Origin: Aurantibacter aestuarii
GTDB taxonomy: Bacteria; Bacteroidota; Bacteroidia; Flavobacteriales; Flavobacteriaceae
Direction: 5' to 3'
Assembly: GCF_003008425.1 (NCBI RefSeq)
Contig: NZ_PXOQ01000007.1
Location: 456,419 to 520,418, forward strand
DNA length: 64,000 nt
A program made the position numbers and the translations under genes. Within the stretch, counting starts at the first letter, position 1. Each line of letters starts with the position of its first letter. Positions 5,739 to 37,788 of this stretch are shown here, in pieces. Below the pieces are notes generated by a model, which saw nothing but the letters and a program-made list of their open reading frames with translations, was not told the DNA's origin and ran no database searches.

Positions 5739-7754
5739 ATGTCTGAAGATAAAAAAGCGCTCAATTTTTTAGAGCATATTATAGAAGAAGATTTAGCCAA
5801 CGGATTAGCTAAAGATAAACTACGTTTCCGTTTTCCACCAGAGCCAAATGGGTATTTACATATTGGTCACACTAAAGCTATAGGCATTAGTTTTGGATTG
5901 GGAGAACGTTACAACGCACCTGTAAACTTACGTTTTGACGATACTAATCCAGCAAAAGAAGAGCAGGAATATGTAGATGCTATTAAACGTGATATTGAAT
6001 GGTTAGGTTACCATTGGGCAGAAGAACGCTACTCGTCAGACTATTTTCAAGAATTATACGACTGGGCGGTTTTAATGATTAAAGATGGCAAAGCTTATGT
6101 AGATTCTCAATCTAGCGAAGCTATGGCAGAGCAAAAAGGAACGCCAACCCAACCAGGTGTAGATGGACCGTTTAGAAACCGTACAGTCGAGGAAAATTTA
6201 GAGCTATTCTCTAAAATGAAAAATGGAGACTTCAAAGACGGCGAACATATTTTACGTGCTAAAATAGACATGCAACATACCAATATGTTAATGCGTGATC
6301 CAATTATGTACCGTGTATTACACAAGCATCACCATAGAACAGCAAATGATTGGTGTATTTACCCAATGTACGACTGGACGCATGGAGAAAGTGATTATAT
6401 AGAACAAATATCTCACTCCTTATGTTCCTTAGAATTTAAACCACATAGAGAACTTTACGACTGGTTTAAGGAAACAGTTTATAGTTATGCAAAAGATAAA
6501 TATCCAATGCAACCTAAACAACGTGAATTTGCGCGTTTGAATTTAAGTTACACCATTATGAGCAAGCGTAAATTACTTAAACTGGTGGAAGAGCAAATTG
6601 TTACTGGATGGGATGATCCAAGAATGCCAACTATTTCTGGGTTGCGTAGAAGAGGTTACACACCAAACGCCATAAGAAATTTTGTAGAAAAGGCAGGTGT
6701 TGCTAAGCGTGATAATGTTATTGATGTCGCTCTTTTAGAATTTTGCGTTCGGGAAGATTTAAATAAAACGGCGCCACGTGTTATGGCAGTTTTAGATCCG
6801 CTTAAAGTGGTAATTACTAATTATCCTGAAGATAAAGTGGAATGGCTTGAAGCTGAAAATAACCAAGAAGATGAGAGTGCCGGTTTTAGAAAAGTGCCTT
6901 TTTCTAGAGAAATTTATATAGAAAAAGAAGATTTTAAAGAAGAAGCAAGCAGTAAATTTTTCCGTTTACAAATAGGTGGAGAAGTAAGATTAAAAAATGC
7001 TTATATCATAAAAGCTGAAAGTGTTGTAAAAGATGCTGAAGGTAACATTACAGAAGTACATTGTACCTATTCTGAAGACACTGAAAAACGTGTTAAAGGG
7101 ACATTACACTGGGTTTCAATTCCACACGCTATTAAAGCAGAAGTAAGAGAGTACGATCGTTTATTTAATGATGAAGCACCAGATAGTCATGAAAACAAAG
7201 ACTTTATGGAGTTTATAAATCCAGATTCTTTACAAATTATTGAGGCGTTTGTAGAGCCAAGTTTAAAAGAGGCTAAAGCAGGAGACCAGTTTCAGTTTCA
7301 ACGTTTAGGTTATTTTAATGTGGATAACGATACAACTAATGGTCATTTGGTGTTTAATAAAACAGTTGGTTTAAGAGATTCTTGGGCTAAGCAAAAACCA
7401 AAACCTCAACAACAAAAACAAGCACCAAAACAAACTAATCATCCGCAACAAGGAGCAAAAGCTATTAATACCATAAATAAATTAGGTAAAAAATACACTA
7501 ATTTACCAGAGGAAAAACAGTTAAAAGTTCGTGCCGAAATTTTAGAATTAGCCAAAGACGTTTCTTATGAAGAATTAGAGCCTTTATTTGGAACAGCAGT
7601 TAAAAAAGTAGGAACACGTATTGCAGCAACCTTAATTTTAAGTGTAAAACTTGACGAAGGTTTAGAAAGAAATCCTGCTATAAACGAGTTTATAGAAAAA
7701 GCTTTAGAAGACGATAACGAACTTTTGGTTCAAGAAGCATCTTTGCTTAATTAG
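5739..7754 (+). CDS. glnS: Glutaminyl-tRNA synthetase with a ~120-aa C-terminal extension
   Basis: Class I HIGH (PEPNGYLHIGH) and KMSKR-like (IMSKRKL) motifs; 671 aa against ~555 aa for a typical GlnRS. A Q/K-rich linker KQKPKPQQQKQAPKQ is followed by a helical domain. Confidence 0.9.
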   Translation: MSEDKKALNFLEHIIEEDLANGLAKDKLRFRFPPEPNGYLHIGHTKAIGISFGLGERYNAPVNLRFDDTNPAKEEQEYVDAIKRDIEWLGYHWAEERYSSDYFQELYDWAVLMIKDGKAYVDSQSSEAMAEQKGTPTQPGVDGPFRNRTVEENLELFSKMKNGDFKDGEHILRAKIDMQHTNMLMRDPIMYRVLHKHHHRTANDWCIYPMYDWTHGESDYIEQISHSLCSLEFKPHRELYDWFKETVYSYAKDKYPMQPKQREFARLNLSYTIMSKRKLLKLVEEQIVTGWDDPRMPTISGLRRRGYTPNAIRNFVEKAGVAKRDNVIDVALLEFCVREDLNKTAPRVMAVLDPLKVVITNYPEDKVEWLEAENNQEDESAGFRKVPFSREIYIEKEDFKEEASSKFFRLQIGGEVRLKNAYIIKAESVVKDAEGNITEVHCTYSEDTEKRVKGTLHWVSIPHAIKAEVREYDRLFNDEAPDSHENKDFMEFINPDSLQIIEAFVEPSLKEAKAGDQFQFQRLGYFNVDNDTTNGHLVFNKTVGLRDSWAKQKPKPQQQKQAPKQTNHPQQGAKAINTINKLGKKYTNLPEEKQLKVRAEILELAKDVSYEELEPLFGTAVKKVGTRIAATLILSVKLDEGLERNPAINEFIEKALEDDNELLVQEASLLN

Positions 7755-7826
7755 TTTCAAGAATTATAACATAAAAGCTCTTAAATATCACGATATTTAA
7801 GAGCTTTTTTTAATAATAAATTTAAG

Positions 7827-8300
7827 TTATTCTCTGAACTGCCCGAAAAACTGACTGCCATCAAATGAAAAAATATTTATTTCATTCAAACCTCCATTGC
7901 TACTTTCCGATACCGCAAAGCGAACATCAAATTGGCAATTATCTCTAAACACCACTTCTGCAGCACTAGTTTGAAAAGGGTTTTCAACAGTAACACAATC
8001 GCCATTATAAGTAAAAATTAGCTTATTATCGCTTGTTACTTCAGCAGTAGCAACCGCAGCAGCAGGAAATGGACCTCCAGTTTGTATTTCGTCATAATTC
8101 AATGTGTAATTTCCTACAATACTTGCTGCAACAGTACCTGCAGTTTCTCCATTGGCAAGTGCAACATTACAAACAGGTCCATTAGTACAGCTACTTACTG
8201 GAGCTGGTAAAGGAGCTTGTGTTAAGGTTTGAGCATCGTCGTCGCTGCTACAATTCCATAAAAGCATGGTTAAAACCATTACATAAATACATTTTTTCAT
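7827..8300 (-). CDS. Lipoprotein, hypothetical
   Basis: Signal peptide with LWNCSS lipobox-like Cys; Cys-containing beta-rich sequence. Confidence 0.5.
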   Translation of the reverse strand: MKKCIYVMVLTMLLWNCSSDDDAQTLTQAPLPAPVSSCTNGPVCNVALANGETAGTVAASIVGNYTLNYDEIQTGGPFPAAAVATAEVTSDNKLIFTYNGDCVTVENPFQTSAAEVVFRDNCQFDVRFAVSESSNGGLNEINIFSFDGSQFFGQFRE

Positions 8301-8415
8301 CGTGTTAGTTTTTAAATTAATAGACTCAAAATTCTATATTTAATACAGTAAAAACAATACGTCAAATGCCTTATAAGTTGAATGCTTAAAAATCTAAACA
8401 CTCATTTTTTCTAAC

Positions 8416-8423
8416 TATATTTG
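8416..8423 (+). promoter_or_regulatory. Bacteroidetes-type -7 box (TATATTTG) upstream of lepA
   Basis: TAnnTTTG match about 32 bp upstream of the lepA ATG. Confidence 0.4.
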
Positions 8424-8454
8424 CAGCATCTACTTTGTTTAGAGACGAAAGACT

Positions 8455-10251
8455 ATGAAGAATATTAGAAACTTTTGCATTATTGCACATATTGACCACG
8501 GAAAAAGCACACTTGCCGATCGTTTACTAGGTCATACAGGAACTGTTACCGCTCGTGAAGAGCAAGCGCAGTTATTAGATAGTATGGATTTGGAACGTGA
8601 ACGTGGGATTACTATAAAATCGCACGCCATTCAAATGGAATATCATTATGAAGGTGAAGATTATATCTTAAATTTAATTGACACTCCAGGTCACGTGGAT
8701 TTTTCTTATGAAGTATCCAGATCTATTGCGGCTTGTGAAGGTGCATTACTTATTGTAGATGCTGCACAAAGTATACAAGCACAAACCATTTCAAATTTAT
8801 ATTTGGCTTTAGAAAATGACTTGGAAATTATTCCAGTTTTAAATAAAGTAGATTTACCAAGTGCTAACCCAGAAGAAGTAACCGATGATATTGTAGATTT
8901 ATTGGGTTGCGATCCAGCTGAGGTTATTCACGCTAGTGGTAAAACAGGTTTTGGTGTAGAAAATATTTTAAAAGCAATTATAGAACGTATTCCGGCTCCT
9001 AAAGGAAATGTCGACGAACCACTTCAAGCCTTAATTTTCGACTCGGTTTATAACCCATTTAGAGGTGTAGAAACTTATTTTAGAGTTATTAATGGTTCTA
9101 TAAAGAAGAATCAACAAATTAAGTTTATTGCCACAGGGAAAACTTATGGTGCAGATGAAGTTGGTACGTTAAAACTAAAACAATTTCCACGTCAAGAAAT
9201 TAAAGCTGGAGATGTAGGTTATGTAATTACTGGTATAAAAGAAGCTAAAGAAGTAAAAGTAGGAGATACTATTACCGATGCTGCCAACCCTACAAAAAAT
9301 GCGATATCTGGTTTCGAAGATGTAAAACCTATGGTATTTGCAGGTATTTACCCGGTAGATACTGAAGATTACGAAGAGCTGCGTAGTTCTATGGAAAAAC
9401 TTCAGTTAAACGATGCGTCTTTAGTATTTGCACCAGAAAGTTCTGCAGCATTAGGCTTCGGATTTCGTTGTGGATTCTTAGGAATGCTTCATATGGAAAT
9501 TATACAGGAGCGTTTAGAACGTGAGTTTGATATGACCGTAATTACTACGGTTCCTAATGTTAGTTACCATGCATTTTCTCACAAAGAACCAGATGATATA
9601 ATTATTGTTAATAACCCGAGTGATTTACCAGAACCATCAAGTTTAAATAGAGTAGAAGAACCTTACATAAAAGCAACCATTATTACAAAATCCGATTTTG
9701 TTGGAAATGTCATGAGTTTGTGTATTGAAAAACGAGGGATGATTTTAAACCAGACTTATTTAACACCAGAACGTGTTGAGTTAACGTTTGAAATGCCTTT
9801 AGCTGAAATTGTTTTCGATTTTTACGATCGTTTAAAAACAGTTTCTAAAGGTTATGCCTCTTTCGATTATCATCCAATTGGTATGAAAGCTTCTAAATTA
9901 GTACGTTTAGATGTTTTATTAAATGCTCAATCTGTGGATGCGCTTTCAGCATTAATTCATACCGATAACGCACACCATATTGGTAAAAAAATGTGCGAAA
10001 AATTAAAAGAATTAATTCCAAGACAACAGTTCGATATTCCTATTCAGGCGGCTATTGGAGCAAAAATTATCGCAAGAGAAACCGTAAAAGCATTACGTAA
10101 AGACGTTACTGCTAAGTGTTATGGTGGAGATATTTCGCGTAAACGTAAATTATTAGAAAAGCAGAAAAAAGGTAAAAAACGTATGCGTCAGGTTGGAAAT
10201 GTAGAAATTCCTCAACAGGCATTTATGGCAGTTCTAAAACTAAACGATTAA
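8455..10251 (+). CDS. lepA: Elongation factor 4 (LepA)
   Basis: N-terminus [23 protein letters not shown] and the GTPase G1-G4 motifs; 598 aa. Confidence 0.95.
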
Positions 10252-29446: not shown

Positions 29447-31162
<1,716 letters not shown>

Positions 31163-31206: not shown

Positions 31207-31260
31207 TATACTAATTAGAAGTACTTGTTTCTAATTACTCTGCAAATATTAAGCAGTTGT

Positions 31261-31280
31261 GTGCAATGTTTTTGCGTACT
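31261..31280. promoter_or_regulatory. Conserved dyad motif, site 1 (GTGCAATGTTTTTGCGTACT), upstream of rtcB
   Basis: One of three near-identical GCAAT-RTTTTT-GCGTA sites; about 110 bp upstream of the rtcB start. Confidence 0.55.
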
Positions 31281-31373
31281 GAATTTTTTATTTAAAAATT
31301 GTGTTTAATTACATCTGAAACAAGCTTATAATAATGTAAACACTTTGCGAGAATTACTACGTAAGCGATTGAT

Positions 31374-31444
31374 GCGGTATCCTTTTGTTTTTTTGCAAAA
31401 GATTTAGCGGAAAGCGTAACCCAAACTTTTGTTTGGGTTACGCC
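31374..31444. repeat. ~70-nt repeated element, copy A (GCGGTATCCTTTT...CAAAAGATTTAGCGGAAAGCGT + 13-bp hairpin)
   Basis: Shares GCGGYATCCTTTTT ... CAAAAAGATATAGCGGA ... GTAACGCC with copies at 41510 and 47120. It also serves as the terminator hairpin after the SPFH gene. Confidence 0.45.
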
Positions 31445-31450
31445 ATACTA

Positions 31451-32551
31451 TTACTTATTTACAGTAAACATATGTTTTAATTGTTCCAAGGTGTTTCCAT
31501 GGTTTCCAACCGTAATTTCGCCTACTTTTTCTGCAATTTTCTCTACATATTCCATTTCTTTCAACTTGAATAACATGCTGTTATCTTCCATTAATTTTGC
31601 GGTATTTAACAAACTTCTTGTGGAAGCGGTTTCCTCACGTCTGGTAATAACATTGGCTTGCGCCTTTTTTTGTGCTACTAAAACCTGATTCATGATTTCT
31701 TTCATGTCTCCTGGCAAAATAACATCTCTAATTCCTGTGTTTAAAACAGTCACACCTAATTTCTTGGCTTGCTCAGTTACTTCAGTTAAAACTGCGTTAG
31801 AAATACTTTCTTTTTGCTCTAATAATTCGTCTAAAGTATAAGCGCCAACATAGGCTCTTAACTTTAATTGTAAGGCAATATATAATTGCTTTTCGTACTC
31901 TTTATTTTGCATTAATGCGGTTTCAATGTTTACCACTTTGTACTGCGCATAAAAGTTAATTCTAATAGTAGCTTTATCTTTTGTTAACAATTCTTGACCC
32001 GAAATTTCTAATTGTAACTGACGTAAATCTGCTTTTGCAATTTTAATGGTTTGATTATTTCTCCAATAGTAATAGGTTCCTGCGCCTAATGTTTTTTGAT
32101 ATTGGTCGTCTATAATTAAAACTGCTTTTTCAAACGCAGAGACTTCAAAAACTCTGATGTATGCTTTTAACGATGCATGATTAAACAAGCTTTTGTTAAT
32201 ATCTTCGGTGATTTCAATGTTATTTAAATCTACTGTGGTAAATTTATAATTGATTAATCCTTTCCAAAAAACATGTCTTCCTGCAGTTAAAACGGTTTTA
32301 AAATTGTTGTTTTCGTACATTAAAACAATTTCGTTATCCTTAACTTCTACAACCTCTAACATGCTAGATAAATTAGAATCTTTAAGTAAGATTTCTAAGG
32401 TTATAGGTGTTTTAAATGAGTGCGACATTGTATAGTTTAAAACACGTTTGTTAAAATTTAACCAATGTGTTCCTTCAGTAATTACGCGTTTATAATTATT
32501 GTTTTTAAATACTAATCCTACAAATCCTGAGTTAATTCTTACTCTTTTCAT
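31451..32551 (-). CDS. Soluble SPFH/band-7 (stomatin/prohibitin-like) protein with triple N-terminal repeat
   Basis: C-terminal SPFH signature (TIRINFYAQYKV...LGVTVLNTGIRDVILPGDMKEIMNQVLVAQKKAQANVI). Three ~55-aa N-terminal repeats centred on YKRVITEGTHW / FKTVLTAGRHVFW / YQKTLGAGTYYYW; no TM segment. Confidence 0.75.
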   Translation of the reverse strand: MKRVRINSGFVGLVFKNNNYKRVITEGTHWLNFNKRVLNYTMSHSFKTPITLEILLKDSNLSSMLEVVEVKDNEIVLMYENNNFKTVLTAGRHVFWKGLINYKFTTVDLNNIEITEDINKSLFNHASLKAYIRVFEVSAFEKAVLIIDDQYQKTLGAGTYYYWRNNQTIKIAKADLRQLQLEISGQELLTKDKATIRINFYAQYKVVNIETALMQNKEYEKQLYIALQLKLRAYVGAYTLDELLEQKESISNAVLTEVTEQAKKLGVTVLNTGIRDVILPGDMKEIMNQVLVAQKKAQANVITRREETASTRSLLNTAKLMEDNSMLFKLKEMEYVEKIAEKVGEITVGNHGNTLEQLKHMFTVNK

Positions 32552-32830
32552 TTGATTCTAATTTTTGTTCTGTTTCTATTTTTAATACAGAACTATTAAA
32601 CATTTATAATAGAATTACCAGTTACGATAATGACTATTCTTTGTAAACAAAGCGCTTAAATGCATTGTTATTACTACGGAAATTCGGCTTATTTTAGCTT
32701 TATATGAATTGTTTTGTAGATGATTAATAAGCTATTAACATGATGTTTTAAACTTAAAAATGAATCTTTTAAAGAATCCATAAAACAGCTTTTAATAATG
32801 CTGAATTTCAAGGTGTTTTCCCAATTGCTA

Positions 32831-32867
32831 AAAGTGTTAGCACGTTTTTAAACACTTTGCTTTTTTT
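32831..32867 (+). terminator. Orphan terminator-like hairpin in an ORF-free region
   Basis: AAAGTGTT-N12-AACACTTT stem followed by GCTTTTTTTGCC; no plus-strand ORF upstream. Confidence 0.3.
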
Positions 32868-33001
32868 GCCATTTATTGTGTGACGCACAAGGGATCTATT
32901 TTTTAAAGTTGATCTTCTTTCCTAAAGTTGGATTTTGAATCCATTTCAATTGCTGTAACCGAAATACAGTGCGTTTGCCAATTTCGCCACAAACCGAAAA
33001 C

Positions 33002-33072
33002 TCGGTTTGGTAGGACTCGAACCTACAAATTGATCTATTGCTTAACCAGACTTAGCTACTTCAAGTTAATGA
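33002..33072 (-). pseudogene. tRNA 3'-half-like fragment A (T-arm plus 3' acceptor strand, no matching 5' half)
   Basis: Reverse complement GTAGGTTCGAGTCCTAC-CAAACCG-A is a canonical T-arm and acceptor 3' strand, but no complementary 5' acceptor strand lies within 100 nt. The adjacent hairpin CAAACCGAGTTTTCGGTTTG folds back on it. Confidence 0.45.
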
Positions 33073-33132
33073 AGGCAGGATTCGAACCTGCGTACATAGA
33101 ATTGATTATTATTTGGCTAATAACCGTAGCCT
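33068..33132 (-). pseudogene. tRNA 3'-half-like fragment B
   Basis: Reverse complement ...GCAGGTTCGAATCCTGC-CTTCATT-A has no 5' acceptor partner. A 64-nt mini-structure closed by GAAGGC/GCCTTC lacks a D-arm. Confidence 0.4.
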
Positions 33133-33223
33133 TCAAGTCAAGTTGAACATAAAAACGTAATACAAACTGTGACGGTTTATGCAATGGTGTTATATTGAAA
33201 CACCTAACAAGACCTGCTTGATG

Positions 33224-33306
33224 TGGAAGTAGTAGGACTCGAACCTACAAGCTTAAAAAAGACCAGATTTACAGTCTGGCGAGCCAACCAATTGCTCAAT
33301 ACTTCC
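33224..33306 (-). tRNA. tRNA-Tyr (anticodon GTA), type II with long variable arm
   Basis: Reverse complement GGAAGTATTGAGCAATTGGTTGGCTCGCCAGACTGTAAATCTGG...GTAGGTTCGAGTCCTACTACTTCC; 7-bp acceptor stem, anticodon loop CTGTAAA. Confidence 0.8.
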
Positions 33307-33316
33307 ATTTAATTTG

Positions 33317-33389
33317 TCTGAGAAGCAGGACTCGAACCTACAACCTCTCGCATCCAAAGCGAGCAAACATCCAATCGTTATCTTCCCAG
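33317..33389 (-). tRNA. tRNA-Pro-like (anticodon TGG), C1:G72 start, A37
   Basis: Reverse complement CTGGGAAGATAACGATTGGATGTTTGCTCGCTTTGGATGCGAGAGGTTGTAGGTTCGAGTCCTGCTTCTCAGA. Acceptor stem 7 bp with one G-U, anticodon stem CTCGC/GCGAG, loop TTTGGAT. The D-stem has only 3 bp and position 37 is A rather than G, so treat with caution. Confidence 0.55.
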
Positions 33390-33503: not shown

Positions 33504-33523
33504 TTGCGCAATATTTTTGCGTA
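33504..33523. promoter_or_regulatory. Conserved dyad motif, site 2 (TTGCGCAATATTTTTGCGTA), upstream of the tRNA cluster and downstream of the TPR/prfH operon
   Basis: Same GCAAT-RTTTTT-GCGTA core as sites 1 and 3; about 115 bp upstream of the tRNA-Pro 5' end. Confidence 0.5.
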
Positions 33524-33544
33524 GTGTAATTTATTTTGAAAAAA

Positions 33545-34090
33545 TTATTTCTTTTTCTTATTCCACTTATTCTTAGGATTCTTTTTTTTACACTTTTTAG
33601 AAGCGTTTGCCTTAATTTTAGCTTTAACTCTAGATATTTCAGAATCTATGAAACTTGTAAAATCATTGTTATAAGCAACTTGTTTGGCAGTTTTAAAAGA
33701 TTTCAACGCTTTTTTGTAATGTTGCTTTTGTTCTAGTAACTGATCATTTAAAACCCAAATTTCGGATTTACTTAAGCCTTTTACCGTAAATGCAAATTCT
33801 ATTAATTGTTGCGCTTCTATAAAATCTTCGTTCCAAAGTAACACTTGAATATAGCTGCTGTAGACTTTATGAAAATCTAACTTAATGGATAGTACTTCGG
33901 CGTAATACTGCTTTGCTTTTTCGTAATCTCCAAATTGTTCTGCTTGTAACTTTCCCATTAAAAACAGTGCATGTATATTATCTTCTTGATAAGACAATGC
34001 GTAGTTTAAATTCTCTACGGTTTCTTCTAAATCGTACGGATAAGCATCTAATGCTTTCAGTACGTAGGTGTTTAGTATGTTGGTTTCCAC
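33545..34090 (-). CDS. TPR-like helical protein with lysine-rich C-terminal tail; GTG start translationally coupled to prfH
   Basis: 181 aa with TPR-like helices. Its GTG start lies 2 nt after the prfH TAA stop, and it ends in the K-rich tail KAKIKANASKKCKKKNPKNKWNKKKK. Confidence 0.6.
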   Translation of the reverse strand: METNILNTYVLKALDAYPYDLEETVENLNYALSYQEDNIHALFLMGKLQAEQFGDYEKAKQYYAEVLSIKLDFHKVYSSYIQVLLWNEDFIEAQQLIEFAFTVKGLSKSEIWVLNDQLLEQKQHYKKALKSFKTAKQVAYNNDFTSFIDSEISRVKAKIKANASKKCKKKNPKNKWNKKKK

Positions 34091-34092
34091 GA

Positions 34093-34806
34093 TTATTTTA
34101 ATTTTAGTTGCTTTTGCAATTCAGTTTTTAGTTTTCCACGTTCTTTTTTGAACGTTTTGTCTTTTTTCTGAATTTTAAAATCCGAGCCTTTAAATACTTT
34201 TGTTGGCTGACCTCTTTTTATATTTAAGTGGTTTTCCCATTGATTTTTAATGCTCGACTTTAAGCGCTTTGTTTGTGTTTGATTGACTTTTTCAATCAAC
34301 CTAATTTTCGCTAATTTTTTGTTTTGATGTTGAGATCTGCTATCCATTACCAACACTTGCGTATTGGTTGGTTTATGCGTTGCTCTAATTGCAGAACTTA
34401 CTTTGTTTACATGTTGTCCGCCTGGACCAGAACTTCTTGTGGCTTGATATAAAATGTCTTTATCTGCTATATCTGAGCCGTATATTTGCTCAATTTCATA
34501 AATACCTATAAACCAGTTTTTACGTTTGTGTTTTGGTCTATATGCAGATACGCCAATCCATTGAATTGTTCCTAGCCACTTGCTTAAAAATGTGGTTAAA
34601 TTAGTTCCTGAAATTTGCACAGTTGCCGATTGTAATGTGCCATTTTCTACGCCTGTTTCGCGCTGCAAAATGCTGTATTCAATAGTTTTTAATTTTGCGG
34701 CTTCTAAAAATAATTTTAGAACTTGAGCTACAACCCAACAGCATTCTGCAGGTCCGCGACCAGATGTTATTTGTATTATTTTAGTTTTTGTTAATGACTT
34801 TGCCAT
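34093..34806 (-). CDS. prfH: Peptide chain release factor H homologue (PrfH; RF2-like, lacks domain 1) with extra K-rich tail
   Basis: GGQ motif RSSGPGGQHVNKVSSAIRATH. The N-terminal domain (GRGPAECCWVV..., WLGTIQWIGVSAYRPKHKRKNWFIGI) follows E. coli PrfH, recalled from memory: [34 protein letters not shown]. There is an added ~25-aa lysine-rich C-terminus. Confidence 0.85.
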   Translation of the reverse strand: MAKSLTKTKIIQITSGRGPAECCWVVAQVLKLFLEAAKLKTIEYSILQRETGVENGTLQSATVQISGTNLTTFLSKWLGTIQWIGVSAYRPKHKRKNWFIGIYEIEQIYGSDIADKDILYQATRSSGPGGQHVNKVSSAIRATHKPTNTQVLVMDSRSQHQNKKLAKIRLIEKVNQTQTKRLKSSIKNQWENHLNIKRGQPTKVFKGSDFKIQKKDKTFKKERGKLKTELQKQLKLK

Positions 34807-35367: not shown

Positions 35368-35973
35368 TCAATTTTTTTTAAAAAGTAATGCCTTAATACG
35401 AAGTATTAACTTTTTTTGAATTGTGCAAATTTTATTTTTATTTTCCACCAAGGTAAATGCTGTTTTGGGTTTTGAGTTGTTTAAAAAATATAATTTTATC
35501 GATTTTAAGTCTTCTAAACTATTCATTAAATTGAGCGTTGTATTCGAAAGCTTTCTAACTTTATTTATCAATTCATTTTTATTAATAATAGTAAATTGAA
35601 AATTTTCAAAATCTTCTCTTAATAGATAAAAATCCCATAGTATATCATATTCAGTTTGATAGTCAAAACACTCTAATAAAACATTTAAATGTAAATAAGC
35701 TTCATCAAAATTATTTGCTTTACTCAGTTTTTTACAACCTTCGATTAGTTTAAAAAATATCATAAAATCTTCACCATGTTTTTCATTAGTGACCTGCAAT
35801 AATTTTTTACTCCATTCATCATTACTATAATTTATGGTAAAAAGATCAAAATAATATGGATTCGAGTCTAGATTAGATAATAATTCATCATTAGTATACA
35901 ACCAATTTTCAAATTGGGAAACTGTTATTCTTTCGGTTAAAACATCAAATATTTTGTATTCTAAAGCTTTCAT
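35368..35973 (-). CDS. Hypothetical protein (no recognisable domain), divergent from the WYL regulator gene
   Basis: 201-aa ORF with coding-like composition. A shared dyad motif sits exactly mid-way in the 93-bp divergent intergenic region. Confidence 0.5.
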   Translation of the reverse strand: MKALEYKIFDVLTERITVSQFENWLYTNDELLSNLDSNPYYFDLFTINYSNDEWSKKLLQVTNEKHGEDFMIFFKLIEGCKKLSKANNFDEAYLHLNVLLECFDYQTEYDILWDFYLLREDFENFQFTIINKNELINKVRKLSNTTLNLMNSLEDLKSIKLYFLNNSKPKTAFTLVENKNKICTIQKKLILRIKALLFKKN

Positions 35974-36006: not shown

Positions 36007-36025
36007 TACGCAATGTTTTTGCGTA
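36007..36025. promoter_or_regulatory. Conserved dyad motif, site 3 (TACGCAATGTTTTTGCGTA), perfect 7-bp inverted repeat
   Basis: TACGCAA-N5-TTGCGTA centred in the 35974-36066 divergent intergenic region. It overlaps a TTG-N18-TATTTTAG promoter-like arrangement facing the WYL gene. Confidence 0.6.
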
Positions 36026-36066: not shown

Positions 36067-37788
36067 ATGGCTGTAAATAAAAACGCACTTTTAAGATATA
36101 AAACCATAGATAAATGTTTACAAAACCATTTCAAAACATGGACTTTGAACGATTTAATTGAAGCTTGTTCCGATGCTTTGTATGATTACGAAGGAAAAGA
36201 TGTAGATGTTAGTAAACGTACGATTCAGTTAGATTTACAGATGATGCGTAGCGATAAATTGGGTTATAATGCGCCAATTATTGTTTACGACCGAAAGTTT
36301 TATAAATACGAAGACGAGAATTATAGTATTACCAATAGCCCAATTTCTAATCAAGATTTAAATAAGTTATCTGAAGCAGTTTCGTTTTTAAAACAATTTC
36401 AAGGATTTTCGCATTTTTCGGCTTTAGATAGCATGGTTCAGAAATTAGAAGATCACGTTTACACGCAGAAAACCCAAGAGAAAGCACTTATAGATTTTGA
36501 AAAAAATGATAACCTAAAAGGCTTCAACTTTTTAGATGAATTGTATCGCTACATACAAGTTAAAAAACCAATAAAACTAACTTACAAATCGTTTAAAGCT
36601 AGAGAGAAAAGCACATTTACTTTTCATCCTTATTTGTTGAAAGAGTTTAGAAACAGATGGTTTATTATAGGTCGTAAAAACTCTAATGTGGCACTTTTAA
36701 ATCTAGCATTAGACCGTATTGTTAAAATTGAAGAATCTGCAGACGAATTTATTTACAACACCACTTTTAATTTAGAAAATTATTACAAAAACGTGATTGG
36801 TGTTTCTGTAAGTCCTACTATAAAAACCGAACATATTTTACTTTATGTTACTCATAAACATGCGCCATATGTGGTGACAAAACCGTTTCATTCGTCTCAA
36901 AAAATTGTTGATAAAGATAATTATGGGATCACTATTTCTTTAGATGTACAACATAATTTTGAACTTGAAAAAGAGATTTTATCTTTAGGTGATGGCATTA
37001 AAGTGTTAGCGCCAAAACGTTTAAAGGAAACCATTAAAGAACGTTTACAAGAAAGTGTAGACACGTATAATACTGAATTAGACTTAAAAGAGTTAACTCT
37101 ATTAAAAAAGCAGGTTTTACATAAAGGATTTTCGGTTTTAAATCAAGTGTATACCAAACGTGAGATTAAGAAAATTAAGGGTAAACTTCACATGTATTTA
37201 AAAAATAATCCTGGTAAAACGTATAGCTTACGTGAAGTGTTTTTAAGGCTACCACAGTTAAAACCTTTAGTAATTAATAAAAATTTAAAGCAAATTATTG
37301 ATAGTTTATTACCAAACGCTTTTCTAACTAAAGTGATTTATTTTGATAAAACCATACAAGATAATTGGTACGTGACATGGCATCAAGATTTACCCGTAAA
37401 TGTAAAAGATAAAATTGAAACTGATGGTTTTACTTCTTGGACTAAAAAAGAAGACGTTATTAGTGTTATTCCACCTGAAGCTATAAATAAAAACACAATT
37501 AGTATTCGTGTACATTTAGACAATACAAATTCAGAAAATGGTGCTTTAAAAGTAATTCCGGGTTCGCAAAACAAACGCTTAACAGATACTGAAATAAAGT
37601 TAATTATAGATAATTCTTTACCTTTTGATTGTGAAGTGAATTTAGGAGGAATTCATATTTTAAAACCTCAAATTTTACATGCGTCTTCTAAAAACAAAAG
37701 CGGCAAACGCAGACGCGTTTTACATTTGGAATTTTCTAATTTGGATTTACCAAATGGTTTGGAATATGCTGAAAAAGTAGATCTTTAG
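36067..37788 (+). CDS. HTH-WYL-WCX transcriptional regulator fused to a C-terminal PhyH-like Fe(II)/2-oxoglutarate dioxygenase domain
   Basis: N-terminal DeoR-type HTH (VSKRTIQLDLQMMRSDKLGYNAPIIVYDRKFYKYED). WYL domain (IKLTYKSFKAREKSTFTFHPYLLKEFRNRWFIIGRK...LALDRIVKIEE). WCX-like segment (HILLYVTHKH...GDGIKVLAPKRLKETIKERL). The last ~170 aa carry the PhyH facial-triad motifs TWHQD ... GALKVIPGSQ ... LHASSKNKSGKRRRVLHLEF. Confidence 0.75.
   Translation: MAVNKNALLRYKTIDKCLQNHFKTWTLNDLIEACSDALYDYEGKDVDVSKRTIQLDLQMMRSDKLGYNAPIIVYDRKFYKYEDENYSITNSPISNQDLNKLSEAVSFLKQFQGFSHFSALDSMVQKLEDHVYTQKTQEKALIDFEKNDNLKGFNFLDELYRYIQVKKPIKLTYKSFKAREKSTFTFHPYLLKEFRNRWFIIGRKNSNVALLNLALDRIVKIEESADEFIYNTTFNLENYYKNVIGVSVSPTIKTEHILLYVTHKHAPYVVTKPFHSSQKIVDKDNYGITISLDVQHNFELEKEILSLGDGIKVLAPKRLKETIKERLQESVDTYNTELDLKELTLLKKQVLHKGFSVLNQVYTKREIKKIKGKLHMYLKNNPGKTYSLREVFLRLPQLKPLVINKNLKQIIDSLLPNAFLTKVIYFDKTIQDNWYVTWHQDLPVNVKDKIETDGFTSWTKKEDVISVIPPEAINKNTISIRVHLDNTNSENGALKVIPGSQNKRLTDTEIKLIIDNSLPFDCEVNLGGIHILKPQILHASSKNKSGKRRRVLHLEFSNLDLPNGLEYAEKVDL

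Follow-up and report, generated by a model that had tools for sequence, protein, structure and literature searches.

A WYL-type transcription regulator fused to a PhyH-family oxygenase adjoins divergent RNA-repair operons in Bacteroidota

Aurantibacter aestuarii encodes a protein in which a WYL transcription regulator is fused to a PhyH-type Fe(II)/2-oxoglutarate (2OG) oxygenase, and this protein most likely controls the RNA-repair and ribosome-rescue operons that adjoin its gene, suggesting a so far undescribed means of inducing RNA repair. The evidence for such control is co-location and conservation and is correlative. The gene lies in a stretch of 64,000 nucleotides, which we call the window. 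We think it probable that the protein combines a homodimeric WYL factor resembling DriD and PafBC with a competent PhyH oxygenase and that it is a dedicated regulator of a divergent RNA-damage regulon. In the literature searched, fusions of WYL with PhyH, a dioxygenase, or a 2OG enzyme are undescribed, but they may be mentioned in comparative genomics of RNA repair. The gene and its parts are as follows.

36067..37788, plus strand: WYL-PhyH fusion gene, 573 amino acids, with a winged helix-turn-helix (wHTH), a helical linker, WYL, WCX, and the PhyH oxygenase
36067..36351, plus strand: wHTH DNA-binding domain, approximately residues 1-95 (AF2 model, Foldseek)
36529..36732, plus strand: WYL domain, residues 155-222, putative nucleic-acid or ligand sensor (Pfam PF13280)
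36832..37053, plus strand: WCX domain, residues 256-329 (Pfam PF25583, E 1.2e-9)
37084..37785, plus strand: PhyH-family Fe(II)/2OG oxygenase domain, approximately residues 340-573, with triad and 2OG arginine present
37381-37383, 37387-37389, and 37678-37680, plus strand: H439, D441, and H538, the HxD...H iron-binding facial triad
37711-37713, plus strand: 2OG-binding R549, downstream of the distal histidine

The initial annotation proposed this fusion and suggested a Pfam search as a check. The search matched WYL, WCX, and PhyH in a single open reading frame, which confirms the architecture. The refuting case named there, two genes split by a frameshift or stop, finds no support: the frame has no internal stops, and the fusion is kept at full length in the genomes of at least 80 Bacteroidota species. 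The protein has 100% identity with an Aurantibacter aestuarii protein, and neither PHROGs nor NCBIfam holds a family for it. The match to PF13280 is clear (E 4e-10; 40 bits, cut-off 21.8), and the WYL residues R179, K192, R197, W198, D216, and R217 do not vary among the 80 genome homologues, in keeping with a conserved basic ligand pocket. The HTH has no Pfam match; its fold is seen in the AF2 model (pLDDT 83.8) as three helices and a beta-hairpin (H5-19, H27-42, H50-61, E71-74, E78-81). With a mean pairwise identity of 77%, the wHTH is the most conserved module of the fusion.

The domain order and fold of residues 1-335 are those of DriD from Caulobacter and PafBC from mycobacteria, both of which are wHTH-WYL-WCX activators of the DNA-damage response. 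Foldseek aligned the fusion to both proteins over their full length, including the wHTH (about 350 columns; E 3.7e-13 to 1e-10), whereas the likeness in sequence is marginal (phmmer E of about 0.3). The WCX domain, which is the dimerization module of DriD and PafBC, also matched the C-domain of DriD (7tzv and 9cu3) with both phmmer and Foldseek. Together with the Pfam matches to WYL and WCX, these alignments support the earlier description of residues ~1-335 as a complete regulator. DriD and PafBC lack the 235-residue PhyH domain and their regulon is DNA repair, whereas the predicted regulon of the fusion is RNA repair and ribosome rescue. In DriD and PafBC, single-stranded DNA is what activates the WYL domain (PMC9186387, PMC11804915); by analogy, the ligand of the fusion is expected to be RNA. 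Its WYL domain would then respond to RNA damage through a signal derived from nucleic acid, for which single-stranded RNA and tRNA fragments are the most plausible candidates. The fusion also resembles BrxR and CapW, the WYL repressors of BREX and CBASS islands, in being a generic wHTH-WYL-WCX protein beside conflict-related operons, and the PADLOC WYL model matches it. However, Pfam annotation of the neighbours revealed no BREX or CBASS genes near the fusion gene, the structural matches listed were to DriD and PafBC, and the promoter geometry described below suggests activation rather than the repression exerted by BrxR and CapW.

The genes and RNAs on the opposite strand indicate what the fusion may regulate. 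From the fusion gene outward, the window contains the following.

35368..35973, minus strand: first gene of the divergent operon, a 200-amino-acid protein (cluster c14, in 11 loci) with no family match, PHROGs and NCBIfam included
34093..34806, minus strand: PrfH (peptide chain release factor H), which rescues ribosomes (NCBIfam TIGR03072 equivalog at 229.2 bits, cut-off 166.65; Pfam RF-1)
33545..34090, minus strand: TPR protein (Pfam TPR; cluster c3, in 28 loci)
33316-33389, minus strand: tRNA-Pro(UGG)-like element (ARAGORN, Rfam)
33223-33306, minus strand: tRNA-Tyr(GUA) (ARAGORN, Rfam)
33016-33119, minus strand: YrlA/Y-RNA-like tRNA-like element (ARAGORN; Rfam YrlA)
32552..33015, minus strand: conserved non-coding stretch upstream of the SPFH gene, a candidate structured RNA or leader (cross-genus alignment)
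31451..32551, minus strand: SPFH/Band-7 protein (Pfam Band_7, E 1.4e-28; in 37 loci)
29447..31156, minus strand: RtcB-family RNA ligase (Pfam RtcB, E 1.3e-34) with an N-terminal DUF6331 (E 1.5e-18)

A TPR partner is known for the PrfH-RtcB system (PMC6514570). Across 33016..33389, Rfam scored the tRNA model at 57.7 and 27.9 bits and YrlA at 32.6 bits, the latter under its gathering score. The non-coding stretch that follows has 72-80% nucleotide identity across genera, and RNAalifold paired it at 83 positions, 21 of which have compensatory changes. A GOLLD-like RNA occurs in one related operon (locus L015) and was absent from six other loci scanned.

This context is conserved. At 63 of 80 loci the upstream region has an RtcB homologue on the divergent strand. 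Where at least 5 kb of sequence was available upstream of the fusion gene (68 loci), RtcB, SPFH, PrfH, RlaP, Ro60, or Pnkp/Hen1 was encoded on the divergent strand at 64. Two loci without RtcB carry instead the Pnkp/Hen1 repair system, which is non-homologous to RtcB. tRNA arrays or tRNA-like RNAs are frequent in the divergent operons, and in many species whole arrays are present, with as many as 19 tRNA genes. Genes downstream of the fusion show no conservation across loci. The regulon in the window would thus comprise the 200-amino-acid protein, PrfH, and the TPR protein; the tRNA-like RNAs and SPFH protein; and RtcB. In relatives it may also include RlaP, Ro60, and tRNA arrays or Pnkp/Hen1.

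Because of this predicted regulon, the fusion appears to be the Bacteroidota counterpart of RtcR in Proteobacteria and TrcR in cyanobacteria. RtcR is a CARF-AAA+-HTH activator that works with sigma-54 on rsr-yrlBA-rtcBA and senses tRNA halves (PMC7790460). TrcR is an RHH repressor that in Anabaena controls rtcB together with a slipin gene and the trn tRNA array (PMC10272220, PMC8421152). All three have a like genomic role, lying beside or controlling RtcB, Ro60/Y-RNA, SPFH/slipin genes, and tRNA arrays. The likeness is one of function and not of homology: the fusion has no CARF, Sigma54_activat, or AAA+ match in Pfam or NCBIfam and no RHH domain, its sensor is WYL, and it has an oxygenase in addition.

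The operon promoters share a palindrome, TACGCAA-N5-TTGCGTA, which from its sequence and position we infer to be the operator bound by the fusion protein. It occurs three times in the window.

36007..36025, no strand assigned: candidate operator 1, TACGCAATGTTTTTGCGTA, in the 93-bp divergent intergenic region
33504..33524, no strand assigned: candidate operator 2, followed on the minus strand by AATATTTG (-7 box), ahead of the tRNA(-like) and SPFH unit
31259..31279, no strand assigned: candidate operator 3, with one mismatch, followed on the minus strand by TAATATTTG, upstream of RtcB

Candidate operator 1 precedes the start codon of the 35368-35973 gene by 35 bp and the WYL-PhyH ATG by 59 bp. 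No other block of the intergenic alignment (A3) is strongly conserved across orders, and the palindrome emerges there as a phylogenetic footprint. Searching the window gave five matches at these three sites, all within the cluster, where 0.77 were expected. Across loci there were 80 sites upstream of the fusion gene and 2 downstream (0.114 versus 0.0028 per kb), nearly all of them intergenic. RtcB is the next gene for 24 sites in related loci, and 20 of these are 21-114 bp before its start codon. The palindrome shares a TACG-N11-CGTA frame and an AT-rich gap with the DriD box, ATACGAC-N7-GTCGTAT (PMC10853764).

The geometry of these promoters bears on the sign of regulation. A TTTG corresponding to the Bacteroidetes -7 box (TAnnTTTG type) follows the palindrome at a fixed offset of 14-15 nt at 66 of 80 sites, compared with 20 of 80 on the control side. 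No TTTG element is found at -33 in the palindrome-bearing operon promoters; the palindrome, centred at about -31, is there instead. PafBC promoters likewise have a regulator site in place of the upstream promoter element, and PafBC activates from a -26 element at promoters without a -35 element (PMC8635444). We therefore favor a model in which a wHTH dimer would sit on the palindrome in place of the missing -33 element, and binding of ligand to WYL would turn the promoters on, probably by activation like the 'sigma adaptation' of PafBC and DriD. The opposite sign is somewhat unlikely but deserves consideration. The fusion would then be a BrxR/CapW-style repressor that occludes the promoters until it is freed by a ligand on WYL, PhyH, or both. 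The palindrome overlaps the core promoter (approximately -40 to -23), so a site at -31 could equally block RNA polymerase, and TrcR, the cyanobacterial counterpart, represses (PMC10272220). However, the absent -33 element and the fixed distance to the -7 box are features of activator-dependent PafBC promoters (PMC8635444), and DriD and PafBC, the closest structural relatives, both activate.

The oxygenase domain appears to be catalytically competent, judging from its residues. The facial triad claimed in the initial annotation is present as H439, D441, and H538, and the C-terminal domain has the double-stranded beta-helix fold, here of the PhyH type, that the annotation had wished to see confirmed. 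In a profile alignment, R549 falls on the arginine of the RKAI segment of human PhyH (2a1x). These four cofactor ligands are invariant across 48 homologues, the triad is likewise invariant in alignments A1 and A2, and all four are present in 69 of 80 genome homologues. In those 69, further polar pocket residues (K422, N433, W434, Q440, W458, R481, H483, D485, N491, H553) are strictly conserved. Stand-alone oxygenase homologues with 38-53% identity have identical invariant polar residues; conservation of cofactor and pocket residues in common with stand-alone enzymes is the pattern expected for an active enzyme. Within the core clade the domain is under purifying selection, with a mean pairwise identity of 56% compared with 60% for WCX.

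What this enzyme might act on is less apparent. The domain has only 14-19% identity with any solved PhyH member, and a profile search against PDB sequences gave no specific or closest subfamily. Its structural neighbours are small-molecule enzymes throughout. Among the PF05721 small-molecule oxygenases (PhyH, PHYHD1/FJS, EctD, SnoK, AviO1, and proline hydroxylase H11), PHYHD1 and FJS remove the methyl group from free 2'-O-methyl nucleosides (PMC12709175); unlike these enzymes, the domain studied here is fused to a transcription factor. Stand-alone homologues occur in varied, non-RNA contexts (beside an SDF transporter, an alpha-2-macroglobulin gene, or in an AbiEii island) that give no clue to the substrate, and therefore the substrate need not be RNA-derived. 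The initial annotation supposed that the enzyme generates or senses a ligand such as modified nucleotides or damaged RNA, or that it acts directly on nucleic acid. As a whole, the interpretation of the fusion given there is supported. The domain has neither a 2OG-FeII_Oxy_2 nor a TET/JBP fold with a nucleic-acid-binding lid, as AlkB- and TET-type enzymes do.

Close WYL-only relatives of about 335 amino acids, with up to 52% identity, exist and so the PhyH domain is best viewed as accessory. It may be an input or signal-processing module in which O2, Fe(II), and 2OG would serve to hydroxylate or demethylate a small, polar ligand; a modified nucleoside or another product of RNA breakdown is one possibility. 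The reaction would tune or end the response and make it depend on the status of oxygen, iron, or 2OG. A more specific version, which we offer tentatively and think rather unlikely, is that the oxygenase oxidizes the RNA-damage-derived ligand of WYL itself (a modified or 2'-O-methylated nucleoside, or the end of a tRNA fragment), so that O2, Fe(II), and 2OG would gate induction, which would also terminate itself. We examined four WYL-only relatives and only one adjoins an RNA-repair gene, being divergent to Hen1. The others are on short contigs or in unrelated contexts, and we did not retain the idea that WYL-only relatives are universal RNA-repair regulators except in weak form.

Enzymes fused to regulators have precedents. 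In Ada, BirA, PutA, and NadR a catalytic domain is joined to a DNA-binding regulator, and catalysis or substrate binding sets transcription. To our knowledge none of them has a 2OG oxygenase or a WYL domain, and their folds and chemistry are unrelated to those of the fusion. An Ada-like arrangement strikes us as unlikely. In it the PhyH domain would carry out RNA repair or salvage itself, by hydroxylation or oxidative demethylation of damaged or modified RNA ends, of nucleosides in tRNA, or of modified nucleosides once released, and its substrate would be the same molecule that WYL binds.

The triad is not kept everywhere. It is invariant in the core clade and lost in several divergent lineages with the RtcB context kept: 9 of 80 genome homologues have substitutions in it, as do most of the more divergent long representatives, where RtcB and SPFH genes still adjoin. 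Catalysis is therefore not essential for regulation. These losses could also mean that the PhyH fold is non-catalytic throughout, serving as a structural or oligomerization module or as a pseudo-enzyme-like sensor, for instance of 2OG, and that the triad of the core clade is a retained ancestral feature of little regulatory relevance. Repeated loss of catalytic residues while the domain and context were kept, with N-terminal modules still 55-71% identical to the window protein, fits this idea. However, the cofactor ligands and many polar pocket residues are kept in the 69 genomes noted above, and where the triad is gone the identity of the PhyH domain falls to 35%, which indicates relaxed constraint rather than a conserved structural role. 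We thus consider a non-catalytic domain quite improbable. Two HTH-PhyH proteins without WYL (P0269 and P0282) seemed to support PhyH as a sensor but were set aside. The P0269 gene has a length that is not a multiple of three, a translation that differs from the query, and no repair genes nearby, and it was treated as a decayed copy.

It is very improbable that the palindrome forms a hairpin in RNA or DNA, as at a terminator or processing site, and accompanies the operons by chance; a terminator scan marked all three window copies on the plus strand and variants that keep G-U-compatible pairing favor that strand (45 versus 8 on the minus strand), but the 3' tail of the consensus is A-rich with no U-tract, the plus strand is antisense to the operon genes, and the half-site frame is like that of the DriD box. 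The constant orientation and asymmetric tolerance arise because the -7 box lies at its fixed 14-15 nt on the operon strand, and given this spacing and the A-rich tail we dropped the terminator reading for that of a promoter-operator.

Control of RtcB-type repair outside Proteobacteria is largely obscure, with RtcR (CARF, tRNA halves) and TrcR the only regulators studied. The fusion family is a candidate RNA-damage regulator of Bacteroidota with a well-defined predicted operator and promoter architecture. Its predicted regulon joins an RNA ligase, PrfH, an SPFH protein, Ro60, Y-RNA-like RNAs, and tRNA arrays. It would widen the reach of WYL regulators from control of DNA damage and phage defence to RNA repair and would bring a 2OG oxygenase into the known repertoire of enzyme-transcription-factor fusions. 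Nature already supplies a comparative experiment, since the family and its relatives comprise WYL-only proteins, WYL with active PhyH, and WYL with decayed PhyH. An attached enzyme that depends on O2, 2OG, and iron could make RNA repair responsive to the redox or metabolic state, or connect it with how modified nucleosides are turned over. If the oxygenase does process the WYL ligand, it would be the first 2OG-oxygenase 'trigger enzyme' of bacterial transcription control and, after CARF-RtcR and RHH-TrcR, a third and mechanistically new solution to the sensing of RNA damage.

The gene at 36067-37788 (+) is one ATG-started ORF of 573 codons with zero internal stops on translation, and the opposite strand is full of stops. 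All motifs quoted in the initial annotation were found in this translation. Searches of Pfam-A with the protein gave three matches over the curated cut-offs:

Residues 155-222: WYL (E 4e-10)
Residues 256-329: WCX (E 1.2e-9)
Residues 401-551: PhyH (profile positions 69-213 of 213; E 1.4e-11)

The WYL and PhyH domains thus occur in one protein as proposed, with the significant PhyH match in the C-terminal third. The generic PADLOC WYL model also matched (1.4e-24), and no curated model was found in NCBIfam. A 100% identical database protein from Aurantibacter aestuarii (Flavobacteriaceae) is named either phytanoyl-CoA dioxygenase family protein or WYL domain-containing protein depending on the source, and the WYL plus PhyH architecture is already visible in automatic database annotations.

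The best 120 clusters (90% identity level) all consist of proteins of approximately 573 aa with WYL and PhyH domains, query coverage of 99-100%, and 58-98% identity. Scanning one genome per species yielded 301 stretches coding for relatives. The best 80 of these 301, which we analysed, are full-length single ORFs with 47-69% identity to the fusion and come from Flavobacteriales, Cytophagales, Chitinophagales/Saprospirales (Aureispira), and Bacteroidales. Because such ORFs occur in many genomes, the alternative that the gene is two genes or a frameshift product fails, and we regard the domain architecture as virtually certain. A full-length copy (L048 3135-4874; 56% identity, operator upstream) lies on a contig of 11 kb from a MAG that carries the label of a gammaproteobacterium, Glaciecola sp.; either a binning error or horizontal transfer may explain it.

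The full-length AlphaFold2 model (pLDDT 83.8) begins with a winged HTH built from three helices plus a hairpin (residues ~5-81), then shows a helical linker/bundle, a beta-barrel WYL domain, and an alpha/beta WCX domain, followed by a helix (340-353) and a C-terminal jelly-roll domain. Structural matches to the C-terminal part were AviO1, SnoK/SnoN, proline hydroxylase H11, HygX, FtmOx1, SyrB2, and PHYHD1.

In the window, the gene is divergent from a minus-strand cluster:

35368-35973 (-): 200-aa protein, no family match
34093-34806 (-): PrfH (NCBIfam equivalog TIGR03072, 229 bits versus a cut-off of 167)
33545-34090 (-): TPR protein
33016-33389 (-): tRNA-Pro(UGG)-like, tRNA-Tyr(GUA), and a sub-threshold YrlA/Y-RNA-like element
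31451-32551 (-): SPFH/Band-7 protein
29447-31156 (-): RtcB-family RNA ligase with N-terminal DUF6331 (E 1.5e-18)

This RtcB scores far under the NCBIfam RtcB cut-offs, so it represents a divergent RtcB subfamily. PrfH and RtcB are an experimentally established pair for ribosome rescue and repair (PMC9304027, PMC9223846), and a TPR partner of the pair has been described (PMC6514570).

The same context recurs across related loci. In 63 of 80 loci, the opposite strand carries an RtcB homologue upstream of the gene. All-against-all clustering of the ORFs of all loci, followed by Pfam annotation, added two RlaP nucleotidyltransferases, Ro60/TROVE-vWA, a metallophosphoesterase, and a P-loop kinase. 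Of the 68 loci whose upstream flank reaches 5 kb or more, 64 carry one or more RNA-repair genes on the divergent strand. Among the four exceptions, L058 has RtcB by tblastn and L017 has a 19-tRNA array, its RtcB probably being beyond the fetched flank. Pnkp/Hen1 is the other, non-homologous bacterial RNA-repair system. In two loci (L038 2552-6289 (-) and L066 975-4956 (-)) there is no RtcB, and Pnkp and Hen1 instead lie beside the WYL-PhyH gene; similarly, a WYL-only relative is paired with a Pnkp/Hen1 system where RtcB is absent (L089 114-1532 (-)). Genes downstream of the WYL-PhyH gene showed no conservation across loci (ABC ATPase in 24, MMPL in 3).

The 93-bp divergent intergenic region contains a perfect palindrome, TACGCAATGTTTTTGCGTA. 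The motif ACGCAA-N5-TTGCG with at most one mismatch gave five matches at three sites in the 64-kb window (36008, 33506, and 31262) versus 0.77 expected, and all three sites are within the minus-strand cluster. Across all loci, candidate sites number 80 on the upstream side of the WYL-PhyH gene (0.114 per kb) and 2 on the downstream side (0.0028 per kb), almost all intergenic. RtcB is the next gene for 24 sites, and 20 of these precede its start codon by 21-114 bp; other sites lie in front of the tRNA/SPFH unit, the TPR gene, Ro60, or the 200-aa gene. The palindrome is also the sole conserved block when the gene's upstream regions in 14 loci of several orders are aligned. In roughly ten Flavobacteriaceae loci (L001, L004-L007, L013, L017, L018, L070, and L075; about 7650-9998 (+)), an unannotated protein of ~767 aa (ORF cluster c16) lies between the WYL-PhyH gene and the operon, and there the palindrome remains beside the operon and does not accompany the regulator gene.

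On the operon strand, the sites share the consensus ACT-ACGCAAAAAgATTGCGT-A.ta...ta..At.TTTG. Of the 80 sites, 66 have the TTTG of a -7 box of the Bacteroidetes type (TAnnTTTG) at a constant distance of 14-15 nt, compared with 20 of 80 on the other side, which places the centre of the palindrome near -31. A -33 TTTG is absent. This geometry resembles that of PafBC-dependent promoters, which have a -26 element without a -35 element (PMC8635444). The DriD box, ATACGAC-N7-GTCGTAT (PMC10853764), has in common with the candidate operator a TACG-N11-CGTA half-site frame and an AT-rich gap. We considered a terminator or RNA hairpin and rejected it on three grounds: the tail is rich in A, the strand that would form the hairpin runs antisense to the operon, and the bias in orientation is accounted for by the fixed promoter spacing.

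The operons are also rich in RNA genes. Upstream tRNA genes number 174 on the operon strand versus 4 on the other, with arrays of 16-19 tRNAs embedded in RtcB/SPFH operons in five loci. Arrays of up to 19 tRNA genes lie at:

L004 3011-5321, L005 3241-5308, L017 2978-4994 (-)
L046 8037-9814, L060 8166-9816 (-)
L039, L053, L024, L025, L031 (-)

Many Flavobacteriaceae keep only Tyr(GUA) and Pro(UGG), the window (33223-33389) included. The arrays resemble cyanobacterial stress-induced tRNA L-arrays, which are co-regulated with rtcB.

Several other RNA elements were observed. The non-coding stretch at 32552-33015 (-), which separates the SPFH start from the tRNA-like genes, shows 72-80% nucleotide identity across genera and contains no minus-strand ORF of at least 60 aa. 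The consensus fold, using 480 nt upstream of SPFH in L075, L006, L014, L013, L015, L010, L023, L016, L002, L009, and L067, has 83 pairs, 21 with compensatory changes, and there was no Rfam match, which makes the stretch a candidate for a leader or a large structured RNA. YrlA, a Y-RNA-like RNA with a tRNA-like domain, matched below its gathering score of 69 at 33016-33119 (-) in the window (32.6 bits) and at 8465-8532 (-) in L002 (38.6 bits). Two more weak tRNA-like matches lie at window 33009-33059 and 32929-32996, and the T-arm GTAGGTTCGAGTCCT has four copies in window 33020-33350. A full-length GOLLD RNA match (model positions 1-416; 124.4 bits, E 2.5e-32, gathering score 150) sits between tRNA-Pro and SPFH in the operon of Olleya sp. 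R77988 (L015 5499-5995 (-)); none was seen in six other loci scanned. The Flavo-1 motif (RF01705, function unknown) recurs between the SPFH 3' end and the RtcB promoter:

Window 31355-31425 (+): 40.2 bits, just under the gathering score of 42
L015 3418-3494 (+): 55.2 bits
L009 5205-5360 (+): 48.2 bits

The predicted iron ligands H439-x-D441 and H538, together with R549/R550, do not vary in an alignment of 48 close fusion homologues, and the equivalent residues are unvaried in 43 C-domain sequences, including stand-alone enzymes of ~240 aa. R549, the predicted 2-oxoglutarate ligand, aligns with the Arg of the PhyH RKAI segment (2a1x). Other unvarying polar residues are K422, N433, W434, Q440, W458, R481, H483, D485, N491, and H553, a pattern as expected for an enzyme with a defined polar substrate. 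All four ligands are present in 69 of 80 genome copies; two were recovered solely as truncated ORFs (L049, L064). Ligands are substituted in nine: L026, L043, L071, L072, three Aureispira loci (L068, L069, L076), a Bacteroidales MAG (L077), and Draconibacterium (L079). The Bacteroidales and Draconibacterium lineages may be anaerobic. WYL pocket residues are unvaried in all 80 copies. In several divergent long relatives, the homologous C-terminal domain is still there, without the triad or the Pfam PhyH signal, both of which have been lost. The divergent proteins P0243-P0266 and the nine substituted loci, with a PhyH-like domain kept and its iron/2-oxoglutarate ligands replaced, are possible pseudo-enzyme derivatives.

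Mean pairwise identity in the intact clade is 56% for the oxygenase domain versus 60% for WCX. In decayed lineages, identity to the window protein is 35% for the oxygenase domain versus 55-71% for the N-terminal modules. This near-equal conservation in one clade and decay elsewhere argues that catalysis is under selection in the main clade, the window protein included. Triad-substituted loci L026, L043, L071, L072, L077, and L079 still adjoin RtcB, and SPFH too in four of the six, so catalysis is not needed for the family's link to RNA repair; the Aureispira upstream flanks are too short to judge.

A sensitive search of 1.84 billion representatives gave, among the matches listed, only ~17 (517-579 aa) aligning from the N-terminus, then a large set of ~335-aa wHTH-WYL-WCX proteins without the oxygenase, 33-52% identical over residues 1-335. 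Four WYL-only relatives were examined: one (52% identity) is divergent to Hen1, and three have uninformative or unrelated contexts. The oxygenase is an accessory module of the regulator.

Stand-alone oxygenase homologues (38-53% identity) have identical pocket residues, and the contexts looked at, an SDF-type transporter (Chryseobacterium), an alpha-2-macroglobulin gene, and an AbiEii island, gave no consistent substrate clue. The sole bridge between PF05721 and RNA found in the literature is a 2025 report that FJS, PHYHD1, and a variety of PhyH-family enzymes take the methyl group off free 2'-O-methyl nucleosides, though not off nucleotides or RNA ends (PMC12709175). By analogy, a small molecule derived from RNA breakdown is a reasonable candidate substrate.

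Together, these data indicate that the fusion is most likely a WYL transcription factor that resembles DriD and PafBC and is devoted to an RNA-damage regulon. The PhyH oxygenase, predicted to be catalytically competent, would give this factor an additional module for input or signal processing. It probably regulates the adjacent regulon via the palindrome, and we lean toward an activator rather than a repressor. That the WYL ligand is RNA-derived is close to an even proposition, falling slightly short of one, and a catalytic role of the oxygenase as regulatory input is somewhat more tentative still. In regulon role it would parallel TrcR, an RHH protein that represses rtcB together with a slipin gene and a tRNA array (PMC10272220, PMC8421152). 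In the literature covered, we found neither a described WYL-2-oxoglutarate oxygenase fusion nor a WYL regulator of Bacteroidota RtcB/PrfH operons. The fusion would join two known kinds, WYL regulators and regulators of RNA repair.
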